Virus record (IMG/VR): IMGVR_UViG_3300011412_000019
Coordinates: 1 to 27,864 of that record
Length of the DNA stretch: 27,864 nt
Source of the DNA: a virus
Taxonomy: Duplodnaviria > Caudoviricetes
Strand: one strand, 5' to 3'
Both the position numbers and the translations under genes were made by a program. Below, in pieces: positions 2,818-27,864 of this stretch. Position 1 is the first letter of the stretch. Each line of letters starts with the position of its first letter. The notes under the pieces are model-generated. The model was given only the letters and a program-made list of their open reading frames with translations. It had not been told where the DNA came from and did not search any database.

Positions 2818-2844
2818 CTATTATACGGAATGTTTATTCTACGA
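2818..2844 (-). promoter_or_regulatory. Repeated promoter motif, copy A (TCGTAGAATAAACATTCCGTATAATAG)
   Basis: Matches the 7-copy consensus; perfect TATAAT; followed by an RBS and ORF 2535-2786. Confidence 0.75.
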
Positions 2845-3839: not shown

Positions 3840-4631
3840 TCAGTCGTATACTCGGTGGTAATCGGGGATTGGAGGTGTAGCAAAGTCGACTGCAATGCAC
3901 GGTCGGTTGTCTGAAGACATTGTGGTTGAGAACTGGACCTCTACCTGATTGTTCCCGTTCCATCCCACATTATCAGAATATGTCGTTGGAGGTAGACCAA
4001 TTTCTGAGTAGAACTCGCTTAGGCTAGCAGACATGAAGTTGTTCAACTCGTGATTGATCTTGTTCTCGGCACGCTTGATCTCTTCGACGCTGCTTGTGAA
4101 ATATCGCCCAGTTAACATGTCGAAACAAAGAACATCTCCTGAACCGGCGAGAATAACCTCACGCCCACCTACAGGCATCCCGTCGACACGATCCTGAGCG
4201 ATCTCGTCATGAATACCTCGAGCTTTGTTCTCGCCCCATCTGTCGACAACCTTCTGCTTGTATTCCTGTAGGGCTCTATCTGACAGCCCACCAGCAATAG
4301 CCAAGGCAGCAATCTTCTTGGAGGCAATCTTATTGGCAGCAACGATTGCGGTTACCGTGGCTGCAGCAGTCAGGGCTGGAGGGATATAAAGATGCCAAGT
4401 CAGCTTGACAATATCCACCTTTGATAGATCTTTAATCGCTTGAACATCTCCATTAGGTTCATTCGACCATCGTTCATGTTCAAGAATCCGAGCAGCCTTG
4501 AATGAAGCGTTTCCACTCAAATATGCAGTCGTGACGGTACCGACAACACCTACACCCGTTAGGATGGTGGTTGAATTCTCATTGACGAGAAATTTCACAT
4601 ACCGAGCCTTGCTAGCCAACACACTTAGCAT
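3840..4631 (-). CDS. DUF6353-like phage protein, second paralogue (263 aa)
   Basis: NSTTILTGVGVVGTVTTAYL, YIPP, F.D..TGRYF and LSEFY..IG.....VGW motifs; GAAAGG RBS. Confidence 0.8.
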   Translation of the reverse strand: MLSVLASKARYVKFLVNENSTTILTGVGVVGTVTTAYLSGNASFKAARILEHERWSNEPNGDVQAIKDLSKVDIVKLTWHLYIPPALTAAATVTAIVAANKIASKKIAALAIAGGLSDRALQEYKQKVVDRWGENKARGIHDEIAQDRVDGMPVGGREVILAGSGDVLCFDMLTGRYFTSSVEEIKRAENKINHELNNFMSASLSEFYSEIGLPPTTYSDNVGWNGNNQVEVQFSTTMSSDNRPCIAVDFATPPIPDYHRVYD

Positions 4632-4643
4632 AAATCGACCTTT

Positions 4644-4784
4644 CTAAAACGGTTGGTTTCGATTGCGCATCTCTCGGACAAAAACCCAGATTAGCCAAAA
4701 ACCTGCGGTGAAGATGGTCATGAGGCAATCGAAGACAAATTTGAAAAACCCATATCGTTTCTTTTCCACGACAAACACGAACAC
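4644..4784 (-). CDS. Small membrane protein, 46 aa (MFVFVVEKKRYGFFKFVFDCLMTIFTAGFWLIWVFVREMRNRNQPF)
   Basis: Hand translation; GGAGGAGG RBS 5 nt before the GTG (an alternative GTG lies at 4778); below the ORF-track cut-off. Confidence 0.75.
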   Translation of the reverse strand: MFVFVVEKKRYGFFKFVFDCLMTIFTAGFWLIWVFVREMRNRNQPF

Positions 4785-4808
4785 GAACACCTCCTCCAAA
4801 AGTTGACG

Positions 4809-4866
4809 AAAAAAAAGAGGCGGCTGTAGTCATCGCTACAGCTGGTCTCCGAAGAGACCTTCCTCT
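4809..4866 (-). ncRNA. Putative 58-nt small RNA B (three-way junction plus U8)
   Basis: Begins right after the TATAAT of copy B: AGAGG/CCUCU closing stem, GGUCUC-UUCG-GAGACC, GCUGUAG-CGAUGA-CUACAGC, then a U-tract. Confidence 0.6.
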
Positions 4867-4891
4867 ATTATAAAGAATGTTTTTCTTGCGA
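4865..4891 (-). promoter_or_regulatory. Repeated promoter motif, copy B (TCGCAAGAAAAACATTCTTTATAATAG)
   Basis: Matches the 7-copy consensus. Confidence 0.8.
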
Positions 4892-5041
4892 ACGAAAAAA
4901 ATCTTCCAGATAAGCGTTATGAATTTGCTTCATGAGTGCTAGTTCGAACAAGAAAGCCATTCGTTTTACAGCTAGTTTTTGTCGCATTAAATGTAATTCA
5001 ACTCGAGATGCGGCAAGAGTCATAGGAGTAAAATCGATCAT
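4868..5041 (-). CDS. Hypothetical protein, 57 aa (MIDFTPMTLAASRVELHLMRQKLAVKRMAFLFELALMKQIHNAYLEDFFRSQEKHSL)
   Basis: Hand translation; AAAGGAG RBS 4 nt before the ATG; the stop codon lies inside the TATAAT of copy B. Confidence 0.65.
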   Translation of the reverse strand: MIDFTPMTLAASRVELHLMRQKLAVKRMAFLFELALMKQIHNAYLEDFFRSQEKHSL

Positions 5042-5057
5042 AGAACTCCTTTAAGTT

Positions 5058-5131
5058 GTTGAGGGGTAGTTCCTACTGTGCGGGATTCCACCCGAGGTCG
5101 AGCTTAGTCATTTCGGCCACTACCCCTCAAC
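5058..5131. ncRNA. Structured intergenic element (perfect 13-bp closing stem with two inner hairpins)
   Basis: GTTGAGGGGTAGT (5058-5070) pairs perfectly with ACTACCCCTCAAC (5119-5131); no U-tract follows. Confidence 0.45.
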
Positions 5132-5140
5132 CTTTTCAAA

Positions 5141-5236
5141 CTAGACCCAGGGTGGAGCTGCTGTTGAAATATAGATGATGATCAAGATCGCCAGCAGAAT
5201 ACCACCGATCCAGATGAGTCGTTGTGTCAGGCTCAT
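5141..5236 (-). CDS. Single-pass membrane microprotein, 31 aa (MSLTQRLIWIGGILLAILIIIYISTAAPPWV)
   Basis: Hand translation; ATGA overlap with the upstream stop; clear TM helix. Confidence 0.7.
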   Translation of the reverse strand: MSLTQRLIWIGGILLAILIIIYISTAAPPWV

Positions 5237-5796
5237 CCGAGCACCTTCTTGTGTGTGTATGCACCGTTACCGTAGAAGTCCTGCTTGATATACGGATAGC
5301 GATGCTCGACGCACCCAGCCACGGGATAGCAGAGCTTGAAGTAGCCTCTGATCTTTGTCCCAAAGTGCCAGGAATATCCCGAACCCCATGTCTCACGTGG
5401 GTAGTTCTTCACGAACTGCCATGGCTGACCGGGAACAGCCCAATCGCGCTCCCAGCCGTAGACCTGGCCGAGCTTGTCTGTTACACTGTTGTAGCACCGG
5501 CGCTGAATCTGCTGGTACCACCACTGTACCGTCCAGATGAACGAACGATATGTTACTCGAGCTCTCCGCCAGCCACAGAAAACCGTGGTCGTACTTGCGG
5601 CGTCCACTCCGACATCGATGTTCTCGGTGATGTATCCATCGTTGCCGTAACCGGTGATACGTTCACCATCCATAACGGTACCGATCGCCATGACACTCGT
5701 CATAGGCATTACCTGTGCAGATGCCTCGTGCGCCTGAAAAACCAGTACTGCGGCGATCAATACGCATGCGGTTACGAGGATCATCAAATATCGCAT
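5233..5796 (-). CDS. Secreted hypothetical protein (187 aa)
   Basis: GTG start with AAGGAG RBS; Sec-type signal peptide ending A-S-A; Trp/Tyr-rich mature part with four Cys. Confidence 0.8.
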   Translation of the reverse strand: MRYLMILVTACVLIAAVLVFQAHEASAQVMPMTSVMAIGTVMDGERITGYGNDGYITENIDVGVDAASTTTVFCGWRRARVTYRSFIWTVQWWYQQIQRRCYNSVTDKLGQVYGWERDWAVPGQPWQFVKNYPRETWGSGYSWHFGTKIRGYFKLCYPVAGCVEHRYPYIKQDFYGNGAYTHKKVLG

Positions 5797-5797
5797 T

Positions 5798-5998
5798 TCA
5801 CTCCTTCGCTTCTCTTAGTTCGTTTAGTTCTCTTGTGAGCTGTCCGACTTTACGAATAGCAATGTTCTTTTTGTTTTTTACGTCCTTAATTCTCTCTGCT
5901 ACAGTCTCGGGTTCGTCAATATACTCCGAACCAGCAAAACCAGCATCTGACATTGCTACATTCCAACGATGTTCTAGATCGGTTCTTTCGCGGTCCAT
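5798..5998 (-). CDS. Hypothetical protein with C-terminal coiled-coil (66 aa)
   Basis: Tightly packed and co-oriented with neighbours; plausible composition. Confidence 0.7.
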   Translation of the reverse strand: MDRERTDLEHRWNVAMSDAGFAGSEYIDEPETVAERIKDVKNKKNIAIRKVGQLTRELNELREAKE

Positions 5999-6014
5999 TA
6001 CTACCTGATCTGCT

Positions 6015-6215
6015 TTACAGCACGCTCTCCGAGAATTCGGGCCCCGGCAAGAACGCCTCCGGCAGCGAGTCCAATCGCAAGAGCATAAACGATGAACATT
6101 TGTTTCCTCCTTCCATAGGAAAATAATTGGTGGGTACGCTTATCACCTCCAACTCAGCGTCAGTCATGATTCCTAGAAGCCGCACAGCTAGGGGAGGTTC
6201 TGACCTTGTGAGCAT
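6015..6215 (-). CDS. Hypothetical protein (66 aa)
   Basis: Fills the gap downstream of the structured element; weak RBS, start uncertain. Confidence 0.45.
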   Translation of the reverse strand: MLTRSEPPLAVRLLGIMTDAELEVISVPTNYFPMEGGNKCSSFMLLRLDSLPEAFLPGPEFSESVL

Positions 6216-6224
6216 AGACTAGCT

Positions 6225-6426
6225 ACTCAACCCACCGCTGGAATACCCTGGACCGGCAAGCTATGATTCACCCATCGGCGAGATCATAAACATGTCCGGC
6301 GCTCTCCCCGTACAGGGCGGCCGATTTGTCGCAGGAGAGGTGTACGCCCCCCGAGCATTTGTCGGCGCTTTTTTTTTGCCTCCGCCCATATGGCTTTGGC
6401 CAGGGTAGTCCAGCGCTAGGTTGAAT
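6225..6426 (-). ncRNA. Putative ~200-nt structured RNA with a 27-bp closing stem
   Basis: 6400-6426 pairs with 6225-6251 at 25 of 27 positions, including 2 G-U pairs on the minus strand; several inner hairpins and an A9 tract. Confidence 0.6.
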
Positions 6427-6550
6427 GGTGGGTTGGTGCCCCGATATTTGATAGGAAGGGCATAACGCCTCGTTTTATTTTCACCAGCCCACCCTATAGG
6501 GGACCCAAGGCCACAAGTTATGTAGCCGGATATTGTCGATCCCCTATAAG
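6427..6550 (-). ncRNA. Two further stem-loop domains adjoining the 200-nt element
   Basis: 6482-6493 pairs with 6427-6438 (11/12). 6538-6550 pairs with 6493-6505 (13 bp with G-U) and encloses GGCUACA/UGUGGCC. Confidence 0.5.
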
Positions 6551-6560
6551 CTGAGTTGAT

Positions 6561-6618
6561 AAAAAAAGAATACCATGAGATCAAAGGTTGGTTAAATCTC
6601 AATTAGAGTTAGTATTCT
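6561..6618 (-). ncRNA. Putative 58-nt small RNA C
   Basis: Begins right after the TATAAT of copy C: AGAAUACUA/UGGUAUUCU closing stem, inner UGAGAU/AUCUCA stem, U-tract; no ORF or RBS. Confidence 0.6.
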
Positions 6619-6643
6619 ATTATATAGTATGTTTTTTCTGCGG
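6617..6643 (-). promoter_or_regulatory. Repeated promoter motif, copy C (CCGCAGAAAAAACATACTATATAATAG)
   Basis: Matches the 7-copy consensus. Confidence 0.8.
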
Positions 6644-6647
6644 GACG

Positions 6648-6741
6648 AAAAAAAGAATACATTCCTCTGAAATCAAGTTTCTCTTCCCTACTGTGATCGG
6701 CAGCGGGCTATCGAGTGTCAGGCTTCATTGGTTATGTATTC
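6648..6741 (-). ncRNA. Putative 94-nt small RNA D
   Basis: Begins right after the TATAAT of copy D: GAAUACAU/AUGUAUUC closing stem, inner CCCGCUG/CAGUAGGG hairpin, U7; no RBS. Confidence 0.6.
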
Positions 6742-6766
6742 ATTATACAACATGTTATTTCTGCGA
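6740..6766 (-). promoter_or_regulatory. Repeated promoter motif, copy D (TCGCAGAAATAACATGTTGTATAATGA)
   Basis: Matches the 7-copy consensus. Confidence 0.8.
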
Positions 6767-6769
6767 GAC

Positions 6770-6804
6770 AAAAAGCTAAAGACCGGTTAGGGTCTCTAGC
6801 TCTT
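6770..6804 (-). terminator. Intrinsic terminator after ORF 6809-6955
   Basis: AGAGCUAGAGACC-loop-GGUCUUUAGCUUUUU. Confidence 0.7.
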
Positions 6805-6808
6805 AAAA

Positions 6809-6955
6809 CTACTTGGTGGCGGCAGCAACGGTCTTTCGGTTGCGGAAGACGTTCAGGACGATGGTGGTCGCGCGGGTCATAATGCGGTCAACGATGACAG
6901 CAAGGAACCACGCGAACATCAGGGTCAGAATGCCTTTCAAAACCTGGTTGAACAT
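6809..6955 (-). CDS. Small membrane protein, 48 aa (MFNQVLKGILTLMFAWFLAVIVDRIM...)
   Basis: AAGGAGG RBS before ATG 6955 (the track start at 6994 lies inside the promoter); one TM helix. Confidence 0.8.
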   Translation of the reverse strand: MFNQVLKGILTLMFAWFLAVIVDRIMTRATTIVLNVFRNRKTVAAATK

Positions 6956-6980
6956 TGAGTTCCTCCTTATAGTTAAGGGT

Positions 6981-7007
6981 TCATTATATGCCATGTTTTT
7001 TCTGCGA
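6981..7007 (-). promoter_or_regulatory. Repeated promoter motif, copy E (TCGCAGAAAAAACATGGCATATAATGA)
   Basis: Matches the consensus; followed by RBS, ORF and terminator. Confidence 0.85.
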
Positions 7008-7040
7008 AAAAGAGAAAGACCATGTTTAGATCTCTCTCTT
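7007..7040 (-). terminator. Intrinsic terminator after ORF 7046-7138
   Basis: AAGAGAGAGAUC-loop-GGUCUUUCUCUUUUU, abutting the next promoter. Confidence 0.7.
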
Positions 7041-7045
7041 GTGAA

Positions 7046-7138
7046 CTACTTTACGGTGAGTTCCTTGTAGCAGGTGTAGACGAATGTCTGGATGTACGTT
7101 GTGCTGTAAATCCAAGCATAGTGCAACGGCCTGATCAT
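7046..7138 (-). CDS. Microprotein, 30 aa (MIRPLHYAWIYSTTYIQTFVYTCYKELTVK)
   Basis: Hand translation; AAGGAG RBS; bracketed by promoter F and a terminator. Confidence 0.7.
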   Translation of the reverse strand: MIRPLHYAWIYSTTYIQTFVYTCYKELTVK

Positions 7139-7159
7139 GAAAATCTCCTTAATAGGGGT

Positions 7160-7186
7160 TCATTATATACCGTGTTTTTCCTGCGA
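7160..7186 (-). promoter_or_regulatory. Repeated promoter motif, copy F (TCGCAGGAAAAACACGGTATATAATGA)
   Basis: Matches the consensus. Confidence 0.85.
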
Positions 7187-7215
7187 GGGTAAGGCTAATA
7201 TCTAATCCTTTTTCA

Positions 7216-7232
7216 AAAATATCCCCCCGGGG
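7216..7232. repeat. 17-bp repeat AAAATATCCCCCCGGGG, copy 1
   Basis: Identical to 27837-27853; both copies are intergenic. Confidence 0.8.
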
Positions 7233-7247
7233 AATTTTTAGTTTGAC

Positions 7248-7287
7248 AAAAAAATATGAAGAGCCGCTTTTGCGGCCCCTCATATCT
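7248..7287 (-). terminator. Strong intrinsic terminator
   Basis: AUAUGAGGGGCCGC-AAAA-GCGGCUCUUCAUAU followed by a U-tract. Confidence 0.85.
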
Positions 7288-7309
7288 TTGAATCTTCTTT
7301 GGGCTTCGG

Positions 7310-7588
7310 TTACTTGGGCTTGAGCAGTAAGCTCATCGCTCTCGACGTGACAACATTCACGCTTTCATGCTTGATAACCATGAAGATCCCGAGAAGGTTT
7401 CCTCCTACCACTGCTATGGTGTCTTTGCTTATTGCTGAAGATCGTTGTTCTTTCTTCAGCTTTGTAAGCTCAGTCGCCATTTTCAGTGCAGTCAGATACT
7501 GCTCGGAACCAATCGTATGGTTACTCAAGTCATGAATCGCTCTGTTAATCTGTCGATCGAGATCACTCTCTACTCTCCTAGAAAACAT
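7310..7588 (-). CDS. Small membrane-associated hypothetical protein (92 aa)
   Basis: AAGGAG RBS after promoter G; motif S.DT...V.GNL.GI..VI.HE...V.TS.A. Confidence 0.85.
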   Translation of the reverse strand: MFSRRVESDLDRQINRAIHDLSNHTIGSEQYLTALKMATELTKLKKEQRSSAISKDTIAVVGGNLLGIFMVIKHESVNVVTSRAMSLLLKPK

Positions 7589-7611
7589 CGCAGCTCCTTA
7601 AATAGATTCTT

Positions 7612-7638
7612 TCATTATATGCAATGTTTTAGCTGCGA
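7612..7638 (-). promoter_or_regulatory. Repeated promoter motif, copy G (TCGCAGCTAAAACATTGCATATAATGA)
   Basis: Matches the consensus; overlaps the stop of ORF 7629-7859. Confidence 0.8.
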
Positions 7639-7859
7639 TCGTCGTTTTCTTCGGAAGTTACAACCTTAAATAACACTTCATCTTTAAACACAATATCTTC
7701 AGGATCTTCATCGAGTTCAAGAGAAAATAGTGTCTTATCTGGATTTACAATTACTCGGATAACTCCACTAAAATACTTACGTCGCCCTAACCACCTTTGA
7801 ATGATGAACCCTGCAAATAACCCTACATAAAAGGCGATTGCTAAATATACCCAGATCAT
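7629..7859 (-). CDS. Small N-terminally anchored membrane protein (76 aa)
   Basis: ATGA coupling to the upstream tail gene; N-terminal TM helix. Confidence 0.85.
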   Translation of the reverse strand: MIWVYLAIAFYVGLFAGFIIQRWLGRRKYFSGVIRVIVNPDKTLFSLELDEDPEDIVFKDEVLFKVVTSEENDDRS

Positions 7860-24276: not shown

Positions 24277-25212
24277 CTAAGCAGCTGCGGTAGCGATTTT
24301 TGCAGCTATAGCAAGCTTGGCTCTGCTCGAAGCTTCGTCCGTAGCTTTATCAATTGTTTGACTTCCAGCTTTTCCTAGAGCTTTAAGCACGAATCTCTTA
24401 GCAGCACTCTTTTCTCCATACTCAAGTCTCCTAACGCTTTGTTCAAGCTGCAATCGCCTTGAATATGATTGCAACTCTTGATCAGAAAGCGCTTTGAGAC
24501 CACTCTTCTTTCCCACCTGCCCGAGCGTGCGCGCGCGTACAGCGTCAGGACTTCCTGTACGGAAATGTCCACCTTTAACTTTGAGTTTCTTTCCTTTGTC
24601 AGCTACTGTAACGCTGCTCGATCTCTTCTGACGGACACCCCATTTCATACCTTTTCTTCCGAAATGAGTAAGAATATTATCTACAATATTATCACTCATA
24701 GCCACTTCCATTTCCCAATTAGGAGTTTTCAAAGGAAATTCGAGGCCTTCATAATCGCCAAACCAAACCCCAATACGATCGAAGTTCACATAGGTAATTC
24801 CAGGATAATCTCGATTATCGGGTTTAGCTGGAGTATCAGGATAACCAAGCGTGATATGTGGTTTCCATTCAGGAAACTGTTCAACCGAATCATATGCGGT
24901 ACGAATATTATGATCTTTAAGAAGGTACGATCTAAAATCGTTTATACCTTCGAATCCGCTCCATTTAGATTTCGAGAAGAACAACACATCAGCTTTGTCA
25001 TCACCTAATACATCACGCCTATCGACCTCTAAACCAAAAGATGTAAGCGATCGATCTGCGGCATGCTTCACAAAACCCACGATTCCAGCAAAGTTTTTGA
25101 CTTTACTTACTTCCCCAAGAAATAAGAGAGTCAGATGAGGAACTTTTTCACTAGAAATCTTGTGAATATAATCATCCTTTGCTGGAATCGCTACAATAAC
25201 CAGATTAGGCAT
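24277..25212 (-). CDS. 2H-phosphoesterase (2'-5' RNA ligase/Acb1-like fold) fused to an 'LTHFGRKGMKWGVR' basic domain (311 aa)
   Basis: Two HxT motifs (PHLTL, PHITL) about 93 aa apart; C-terminal domain begins with the HxGxKGMKWGVR motif. Confidence 0.8.
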   Translation of the reverse strand: MPNLVIVAIPAKDDYIHKISSEKVPHLTLLFLGEVSKVKNFAGIVGFVKHAADRSLTSFGLEVDRRDVLGDDKADVLFFSKSKWSGFEGINDFRSYLLKDHNIRTAYDSVEQFPEWKPHITLGYPDTPAKPDNRDYPGITYVNFDRIGVWFGDYEGLEFPLKTPNWEMEVAMSDNIVDNILTHFGRKGMKWGVRQKRSSSVTVADKGKKLKVKGGHFRTGSPDAVRARTLGQVGKKSGLKALSDQELQSYSRRLQLEQSVRRLEYGEKSAAKRFVLKALGKAGSQTIDKATDEASSRAKLAIAAKIATAAA

Positions 25213-27756: not shown

Positions 27757-27836
27757 GCGACCTCCTCTCATTAGTTATAGAGTTCGAGCTCCTTTCCCTA
27801 CACTTTTAACCCCGGAAAAAGTCGAATTGTTTGTGG

Positions 27837-27853
27837 AAAATATCCCCCCGGGG
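27837..27853. repeat. 17-bp repeat AAAATATCCCCCCGGGG, copy 2
   Basis: Identical to 7216-7232; upstream of the virion operon. Confidence 0.8.
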
Positions 27854-27864
27854 CTTTTTTTGTA

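Follow-up and report, generated by a model that had tools for sequence, protein, structure and literature searches.

Introduction

Three described systems are among the closest to the elements analyzed here. In the accessible text of their reports, the Gordonia cluster DJ phages Vardy and Conley carry a 50-bp and a 43-bp intergenic motif that contains TATAAT and lies ahead of small central genes (PMC9671010, PMC10868162). A protein of the lineage discussed below has already been proposed to be an RNA polymerase (10.1101/842583; PMC2919709), the family having been predicted since 2010. P23-45, as far as its description was available, provides a precedent for private promoters of single-chain two-barrel polymerases. 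Here we analyze a viral DNA of 27,864 nucleotides (nt), positions 1 to 27,864 of IMG/VR record IMGVR_UViG_3300011412_000019 (the window). It contains seven copies (A to G) of a TATAAT-containing motif, of which B, C and D head short units that an original prediction, made from the letters alone, had described as interchangeable cassettes for self-paired small RNAs. On balance we lean towards reading these units as terminator cassettes of a phage polymerase, anchored at +1 (the base right after TATAAT), with D a stand-alone RNA gene and B and C attenuating leaders.

End-paired units behind a repeated motif

The motif TCGCA-N3-WWWACA-N5-TATAAT-RR occurs seven times in the window, always on the minus strand, compared with 0.02 expected copies. 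The predicted lengths of units B, C and D (58, 58 and 94 nt) and the pairing of their ends were borne out, and the units fold better than shuffled sequences, with z-scores of -3.93, -3.98 and -2.79 (0/200, 0/200 and 1/200 shuffles folded equally well). With the first 10 nt and the U tract left in place and everything else shuffled, 5, 2 and 0 of 1000 sequences closed with a probability as high as that of B, C and D, respectively. The 5-bp end stem of B is weak on its own (77 of 1000 shuffles did as well). In all three units a stem is followed directly by the U tract, as in an intrinsic terminator. The closing stems enclose 33-71 nt and not the 3-8-nt loop of such terminators, and a terminator scan of the window units reported just the inner hairpin of B.

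The three units differ in their relation to neighboring sequence. Because of orthologue position, conservation and whole-unit loss patterns, we identify B from its sequence context as a conserved leader with two hairpins that precedes the DUF6353 operon, and C as the leader of a larger uncatalogued RNA, while D is likely a stand-alone cassette with a conserved interior that behaves as a mobile stand-alone gene. In relative L292, the B orthologue lies ahead of the same gene and keeps AGAGG/CCUCU and the second hairpin, the first hairpin being replaced entirely. Ten of the 12 units listed before the YGF gene family have two hairpins inside the closing stem and share almost no sequence, and in phage 1706 a closed leader stands ahead of gp51, which the Pepy6 record relates to Pepy6 gp069. 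In L292, both sides of the closing stem of the C orthologue have changed, and the 150-200-nt long-stem RNA that the window carries at 6226-6424 comes immediately after this unit. The same order is seen in L001 and L177/L214, and unit C itself is common to the window and L294 (record G001). The interior of D is 88% identical in L001 and L299; there it follows an additional 5' domain and is enclosed by another closing stem, whose changes are compensated. One of its inner helices varies yet stays paired in all three sequences. D is missing from L292, and one contig of strain X4 skips it exactly (6651-6768) and lacks cassette F as well. A relaxed search for D returned 31 stretches, in which the homologues were just the two already known.

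These comparisons modify the original prediction in several respects. Conservation of the end pairing was found, as the B, C and D orthologues keep the closing stem, with two-sided changes for C and D. The interiors are unrelated among B, C and D, as claimed, but each has structural orthologues in relatives. It is correct that no ribosome-binding site (RBS) directly follows the motif, but the RBS GGAGGAGG and a gene for 46 amino acids (aa) lie beyond the U tract of B. Unit C likewise has no RBS right after the motif, and two long-stem non-coding elements downstream of it had been overlooked. The units are modular and non-coding, and D is gained or lost whole; B and C hold conserved leader positions, so that the picture of three free, interchangeable small RNAs is not supported. 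Antisense or guide roles are not favored either, as the longest complement to the units elsewhere in the window is 10 nt. A covariance-model search against Rfam, with riboswitches, ribozymes, Y RNA, CRISPR repeats and ToxI included, gave no window match at E<=1.

Two assignments of D were tried and rejected. The model of the pseudoknot family described below gives no match in the window. Likeness of D to twister, hammerhead or hairpin ribozymes was judged by eye; the cores are incomplete, and there is no Rfam match.

Two further structured elements of the window were observed. The RNA at 6226-6424 is also present in L292, L014/L305, L177/L214 and L001, and belongs to an uncatalogued family of 150-200 nt whose outer stem spans 25-30 bp and whose junction core is conserved; another copy, in L306, adjoins a transfer RNA (tRNA) gene. 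Separately, 5053-5131 on the minus strand folds (z -3.0) into a small structured core closed by a 13-bp stem and has no promoter of its own; it is 83% identical in L292, where it lies directly ahead of promoter B.

The closed frame in related phages

Motif copies were collected from related loci, from seven cultured phages and, as samples, from viral and metagenome contigs scanned with the pattern. At least 489 distinct copies were found, comprising at least 289 led by an RBS, at least 133 heading closed-stem units and at least 67 unclassified, which suggests that about a quarter of the motif copies across a large phage lineage head a closed unit. The units were chosen by pairing at +2 to +6 (not +1) plus a U-rich tract. 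What follows these at least 133 units is an RBS and gene in 72 cases, the next promoter in 26, other sequence in 32 and a locus edge in 3.

Arms swapped between units served as control, because purine-rich starts pair easily with U-rich tails. For 65 units picked without folding (3 of 68 rows, L256 twice and L198, were dropped), own arms gave -9.0 kcal/mol versus -6.0 kcal/mol for swapped arms, a difference reached in 0/20,000 permutations. A held-out set consisted of genome contigs, where 20 of 44 motif copies had a tract and units were again picked without folding; own arms gave -7.4 and swapped arms -5.6 kcal/mol (0/20,000 permutations, 20 units). Sixteen of these 20 units were closed in the best fold, 8 of the 20 from +1. 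The non-Watson-Crick cells in 30 registered stems comprised 37 G-U versus 6 A-C.

Closed units are carried by the cultured phages 1706, Duffington and Sporto, which have laboratory hosts; in the list of cultured-phage units, two of the four from 1706, one from Pepy6 and one from Sporto look spurious or mis-bounded. Nineteen units precede a VRR-Nuc gene. In the three annotated genomes this gene is followed at a short distance by the polymerase gene described below, and self-regulation of the polymerase through this leader is possible. The promoter before the VRR-Nuc gene was usually seen with a closed-stem U-tract leader (L036, L054, L086, L089, L101 and others).

A universal interior signal, sought as an AAUGU-like antitermination box, was weak (9/109 versus 4.9 expected), and no leader peptide or alternative antiterminator was found in the units. 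The word ACA(A/C/T)G stands in 58 of 139 hairpin segments before promoters in related loci, a raw count; it is possibly a sequence-specific part of the phage terminator.

Predicted position of the transcription start

Transcription is likely to start at about +1 and not at +7, judging from several features of the motif copies. Pairing with the tail averages 0.76 at +1, 0.36 at -1, 0.49 at -2 and 0.13 at -4, the upstream values being about what a U tract gives with the A's of TATAAT. Among the matches listed, the first paired base is +1 in 99 of 133 units, +2 in 20 and +3 in 14. A start at +7 removes the stem beside the tract (0.72 to 0.32; 76 to 17 of 133 units), and the stem values of B, C and D drop to 0, 0.16 and 0.15. 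In the unconstrained set, a purine is found at +1 in 167/167 and at +2 in 166/167 copies, but purines are missing from both +6 and +7 in 134 of 241 coding copies.

Coding copies and structured cargo give further, likewise indirect, indications of the 5' end. Of 218 coding copies, 11 have a Shine-Dalgarno (SD) sequence that starts at +1 to +6; one of the 11 is a misfiled unit, and the annotated genes are from 1706 only. In 1706 gp23, gp25 and gp26, TATAGT is followed at +1 to +10 by AGAAAGAAGG, which we take to match the low-GC SD consensus at 9 of 10 positions. In L154 and L395, the acceptor stem of a tRNA-like cargo is built from the +1 arm. The start may alternatively lie at the A's at -2/-3. 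Several of these lines speak against the caveat of the original prediction, a sigma-70 start at +7 with the units serving as insulators.

A predicted RNA polymerase of the lineage

The motif is likely not of a host promoter type and probably serves as promoter for a single-chain RNA polymerase that the phage itself is predicted to encode. A search blind to the hexamer recovered the sigma-70-type -10 pattern TAnnnT (first T in 140, A in 128 and last T in 138 of 142 copies). The third hexamer position was fixed in 137 of 142 copies, as strongly as the first and last. No TTGACA-like -35 box was found at 16-19 nt (mean 1.2-1.9 of 6 matches), and a promoter scan scored one of the seven window copies as a sigma-70-type promoter. 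The strict motif form occurs in just 39 stretches in 596 Gb of prokaryote genomes, mostly in metagenome-assembled contigs.

The lineage encodes a DFDGD protein of 850-1050 aa with helix-turn-helix (HTH) domains at both ends. The DFDGD motif is present in 21/21 proteins examined. Of 20 long records that carry the promoter motif, 19 encode the protein; for records of >=90% completeness the figure is 17 of 18. A structure model with a predicted local distance difference test (pLDDT) score of 80 has QDE-1 as its top fold match (E 1.4e-7), with Thermus phage gp64-type structures at ranks 2-5 and RDR2 as further matches, all at low template modeling (TM) scores of about 0.3. As modeled, the protein would combine the DxDGD motif and the two-barrel fold of single-chain RNA polymerases. 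A phmmer search against PDB sequences gave no match, and the Pepy6 record labels the homologue as 'similar to 1706 gp75, structural protein'. Co-occurrence within one lineage is not proof of motif recognition, and a host enzyme acting with a phage activator is possible.

RNA cargo in relatives

Several unrelated kinds of structured RNA stand inside the frame. With four pattern variants that were written after the units had been seen, the T-arm motif was found in 11 of 133 units versus 0/289 coding copies, among the matches listed. Some cargo in relatives forms a tRNA cloverleaf with T arm, in which the anticodon loops have 3-6 nt or are otherwise irregular, and not the regular 7 nt. ARAGORN reported 'tRNA-???' for L154 and L010, and loops of 3-6 nt are present in Pepy6, Duffington, 1706 and L395. 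tRNA-shaped RNAs were observed behind the motif at Pepy6 41206-41278, 1706 L271:16076+ and Duffington L301:3695+, and in L010, L019, L146, L154, L202 and L395; they are candidate tRNA mimics without an anticodon.

Repeats form a second kind of cargo. Six of 133 units contain an exact internal repeat of >=11 nt, compared with 0.05 in shuffles. The interiors in L055, L118, L192, L209, L246 and L297 contain two or three near-identical modules of 15-25 nt, and such modules resemble multivalent protein-binding RNAs. The decoy role among those first suggested for the units fits both these tandem repeats and the tRNA mimics.

The third kind is a pseudoknot family of about 110-140 nt with a T-loop-like hairpin and a covarying kissing loop. 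With the structure drawn on one member, 87.5% of cells are paired across 15 sequences and 22 of 27 pairs show two-sided changes, compared with 0/500 shuffles and 38-47% in slid controls; the kissing strands match in 25/25. An interior-only search returned 20 stretches, of which the 19 that were re-parsed all have a promoter 12-40 nt upstream and 16 have a closed stem. We regard this as the strongest sign that the frame yields functional RNAs. Members were seen in L016, L104, L117, L127, L139, L160, L228, L240, L251 and L272-L291, at L006:9510-9629 and in Pepy6 (L270:11342-11457). The family has no Rfam match. It was also considered as a mimic of transfer-messenger RNA (tmRNA) and rejected, as model R1 had no match on E. 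coli ssrA at E<=1 and ARAGORN called no tmRNA.

In 20 and 8 related loci, Rfam searches matched just tRNA, a plastid model (weakly, on the strand opposite the tRNAs) and, elsewhere, a manA RNA. The manA RNA (RF01745) lies above the gathering score at L005:818-1004 of a related phage.

Organization of the window

The window appears to be a 27.9-kb fragment of a siphophage of the 1706/Pepy6/Streptomyces BI-type supercluster, which comprises Lactococcus 1706, Rhodococcus Pepy6, Streptomyces BI, Arthrobacter AM-AU and Gordonia DJ phages. It contains the protease-capsid fusion and common core genes of this group. The fusion has matches in 248 cultured phage records, the best at 59.9% (LibertyBell); DUF6353 was matched twice, and a Pepy6 gp37-like tail protein was matched as well. 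The cassette locus is a variable array of small genes with tail genes on one side and the DUF6353 operon on the other (Table 1). In a blastn search of 4600-7700 against cultured phages, the matches were short and none spanned 80%. A tRNA search found no tRNA in the window and no cloverleaf with T arm. The three DNA runs that best cover the window come from freshwater sediment.

Two other features of the window were recorded. A palindromic element of the AAAAT-CCCCCCGGGG type occurs twice, at 7201-7242 between the tail genes and the array and at 27822-27863 at the window end, and similar strings are present in several relatives. The protein encoded at 24277-25212 (minus strand), adjoining terminase, has a 2H-phosphoesterase-like domain and a DUF7211 motif.

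Table 1. Units, promoter motif copies and adjoining features of the cassette locus (window coordinates).
Feature	Position	Strand	Description
Promoter motif copy A	2820..2844	-	RBS-led gene 2535-2786; weak mini-hairpin, not significant (z -1.5)
DUF6353 gene	3840..4631	-	Second gene downstream of unit B
46-aa 'YGF' membrane-type gene	4644..4784	-	GTG at 4784; directly after unit B
RBS GGAGGAGG of 46-aa gene	4790-4797	-	Strong; 11 nt past the U tract of unit B
Unit B	4809..4866	-	58 nt; closing stem AGAGG/CCUCU, two hairpins (three-way junction), U8 tract
Promoter motif copy B	4867..4891	-	Heads unit B
Long-stem RNA, ~200 nt	6226..6424	-	Conserved junction core; no Rfam match
Long stem-loop	6473..6560	-	Directly past the U tract of unit C; missing from relative L292
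Unit C	6561..6618	-	58 nt; 9-bp closing stem, one inner hairpin, U7 tract
Promoter motif copy C	6619..6643	-	Heads unit C
Unit D	6648..6741	-	94 nt; 8-bp closing stem, interior with covarying helix, U7 tract, then promoter C
Promoter motif copy D	6742..6766	-	Heads unit D
Hairpin and U-tract terminator of gene E	6770..6800	-	Ordinary type; immediately upstream of promoter D (sequence)
Promoter motif copy E	6983..7007	-	RBS-led gene 6809-6958
Promoter motif copy F	7162..7186	-	RBS-led; cassette missing from strain X4
Promoter motif copy G	7614..7638	-	RBS-led gene 7310-7588

Interpretation and alternatives

The motif, the pairing and its covariation, the positions of the units, their modular loss and the co-occurrence with a polymerase gene were observed directly. 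From these we infer promoter use by the polymerase, the start site, termination, read-through and any ligand. The phage polymerase would start at the purine right after TATAAT, or 1-3 bases before it, and the first bases of the transcript would pair with those before the U tract, forming a terminator stem and releasing folded RNAs of 58, 58 and 94 nt. D would then be a stand-alone RNA; that it acts by protein binding, as a decoy or mimic, has about even chances within this reading. B and C would be leaky promoter-proximal terminators that limit or delay expression of the downstream DUF6353 operon and the larger structured RNA, respectively, and their 5'-paired end would shield the RNA from 5'-end decay.

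A number of observations weigh against this reading. The pairing and the U tract in the 133 units are partly built in, because both were used in selection; pyrimidine tails of any kind are easy partners for a purine-rich start, -6 kcal/mol being reached even by swapped arms, and the own arm is best in just 15 of 65 units. Some closed stems among the unclassified rows have little U tract. In the stretches examined, none of the motif copies of LibertyBell (0/8), DrGrey (0/11) and DizzyRudy (0/6) heads a closed unit, and leaders are therefore not universal. Many sequences are related, so that the counts are not independent events, and D is known from three sequences only. The polymerase gene lies outside the 27.9-kb fragment (it is present in the close relative G001 and in 3 of 5 partial relatives), and one of the 20 long motif-bearing genomes has no DFDGD match. 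Finally, the motif contains a perfect sigma-type TATAAT hexamer, and two papers, in their accessible text, take it as a sigma-70 -10 box (PMC9671010, PMC10868162).

A more far-reaching interpretation is put forward tentatively. The lineage, across Actinobacteria and Firmicutes hosts, might run a Pol III-like small-RNA factory with swappable RNA decoys, traded between phages like early anti-host protein genes. The one-chain polymerase would start right after TATAAT and stop when the beginning of the transcript pairs into a stem. Its decoy set might comprise the anticodon-less tRNA mimics, the new pseudoknot RNA, the tandem aptamer-like repeats and D.

The best-surviving alternative, which we consider unlikely, retains the start at +1 and regards the closing stem mainly as a 5'-end shield and ribosome-site guard on longer transcripts, with U-tract termination minor and the short RNAs of B and C by-products or absent. 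It would account for the 72 of 133 units that are followed by an RBS and gene, for the lack of common sequence in the interiors of the 19 VRR-Nuc and the 11 YGF leaders, and for closed stems without a strong U tract; in read-through folds, moreover, moving the start from +7 to +1 lowers the pairing of the SD from 0.71 to 0.56. However, 26 units including D directly precede the next promoter and have nothing to protect. Gene-leading tracts are as U-rich as those of stand-alone units (5.9 versus 5.85 T in 8 nt, partly owing to selection), and the tail of B can itself pair with its SD in the read-through fold.

Initiation at about +7 by a host sigma-70-type polymerase, perhaps with a phage activator at TCGCA, seems improbable to us. 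Stems would then form on read-through RNA only, and the cassettes would be insulating. T4 MotA is an example of a phage activator that acts with the host polymerase, the perfect and published -10 box would be explained, and the loss of the stem beside the tract with a +7 start is what an insulator would need. This mechanism gives no reason for a stem to begin at +1 instead of anywhere upstream, and a hairpin with T tract already stands just before the promoter in 49 of 127 units, the same share as for coding copies (87/224). It would also cut the SDs at +1 to +6, remove the acceptor stem from the tRNA-like cargo and leave the 134 coding copies mentioned above without a purine at the start.

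We give similarly little credence to the view that B, C and D are all free trans-acting small RNAs (antisense RNAs, guides or decoys) whose place before genes is incidental. The units do share their frame with stand-alone cargo, the two-hairpin shape of B in 10 of its 12 listed relatives could be read by a ligand, and the pseudoknot family is found before genes as well as before promoters. Yet B-type units stay before one gene family even though interior identity is lost entirely, several lineages have a C-type unit ahead of the same large RNA, and the window holds no complement beyond 10 nt and no Rfam or CRISPR-repeat match.

It is very improbable that the pairing acts in DNA, through a hairpin or cruciform, or merely arose when the promoter end was duplicated in inverted orientation. 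The full inverted promoter copy at the L256 contig end speaks for this view, and a G-T excess alone cannot separate RNA from single-stranded DNA. Against it stand T-loop motifs, a UUCG loop, a covarying kissing loop and sense-strand U tracts, which are RNA features, and pairing that stops near +1.

Comparison with described systems

The motif (as a sigma-70 motif) and the polymerase (as a prediction) have been published, whereas the units are real, widespread and apparently undescribed. The main text of Klyczek 2017 (PMC5513430) contains no 'promoter', 'TATAAT' or 'terminator', and the accessible text of PMC13313380 and PMC5759034 has nothing on RNA units. The literature searched held no description of self-closing units; supplements, Summer 2011 (Pepy6) and Garneau 2008 (1706) lay outside this search and may describe motif or units. 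Large structured-RNA screens of phages may list some of the cargo outside Rfam.

If correct, the analysis gives a sequence-based prediction of start site and terminator for a phage polymerase family known from prediction. It uncovers more than 100 unannotated candidate RNAs, including at least three uncatalogued families, and should the cargo be decoys, the cassettes would directly supply candidates for RNA counter-defence. A compact polymerase could also be useful as an expression tool, combined with a 25-bp promoter and a transcript that closes on itself.

Judging by its description, the Vardy/Conley motif is the same repeated motif as the one here. In the accessible text it is a sigma-70 -10 box before proteins, with no mention of non-coding units, end pairing or a polymerase link. 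The 1706 gp75-family 'HTH protein', or putative YonO-like RNA polymerase, is of the same family and lineage as the DFDGD protein, with DxDGD and HTH domains at both ends (10.1101/842583, PMC2919709). Its activity is only predicted in the accessible text of the preprint (10.1101/842583), which contains neither 'promoter' nor 'terminator' and no RNA cassettes. The P23-45-type polymerase is likewise a single-chain two-barrel enzyme with its own repeated promoter motif, and gp64-type structures are among the fold matches. Enzyme and motif are different, and no self-closing RNA cassettes are described in the portions available.

In intrinsic terminators and promoter-proximal attenuators, a stem abuts a U tract and both lie upstream of an RBS. 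The units have the same stem and tract, but their 5' arm would be the first bases of the transcript and their 'loop' is a folded domain of 10-140 nt. Phage RNA counter-defence includes pseudo-ToxI repeats, RNA anti-CRISPRs and phage tRNAs. The units would likewise be non-coding phage RNAs in variable, presumably early regions, with tandem repeats and tRNA shapes among their cargo; they differ in having no ToxI or CRISPR-repeat match and in the broken anticodon loops of the tRNA-like cargo. Adenovirus virus-associated (VA) RNA, Y RNAs and the tRNA-mimicking bacterial YrlA are end-paired RNAs with a U-rich end, a structured or tRNA-like interior and a decoy or adaptor role. The units have the same closing stem and U-rich end, without sequence or Rfam match, and differ from these RNAs in that one frame is reused for unrelated cargo and as a gene leader.

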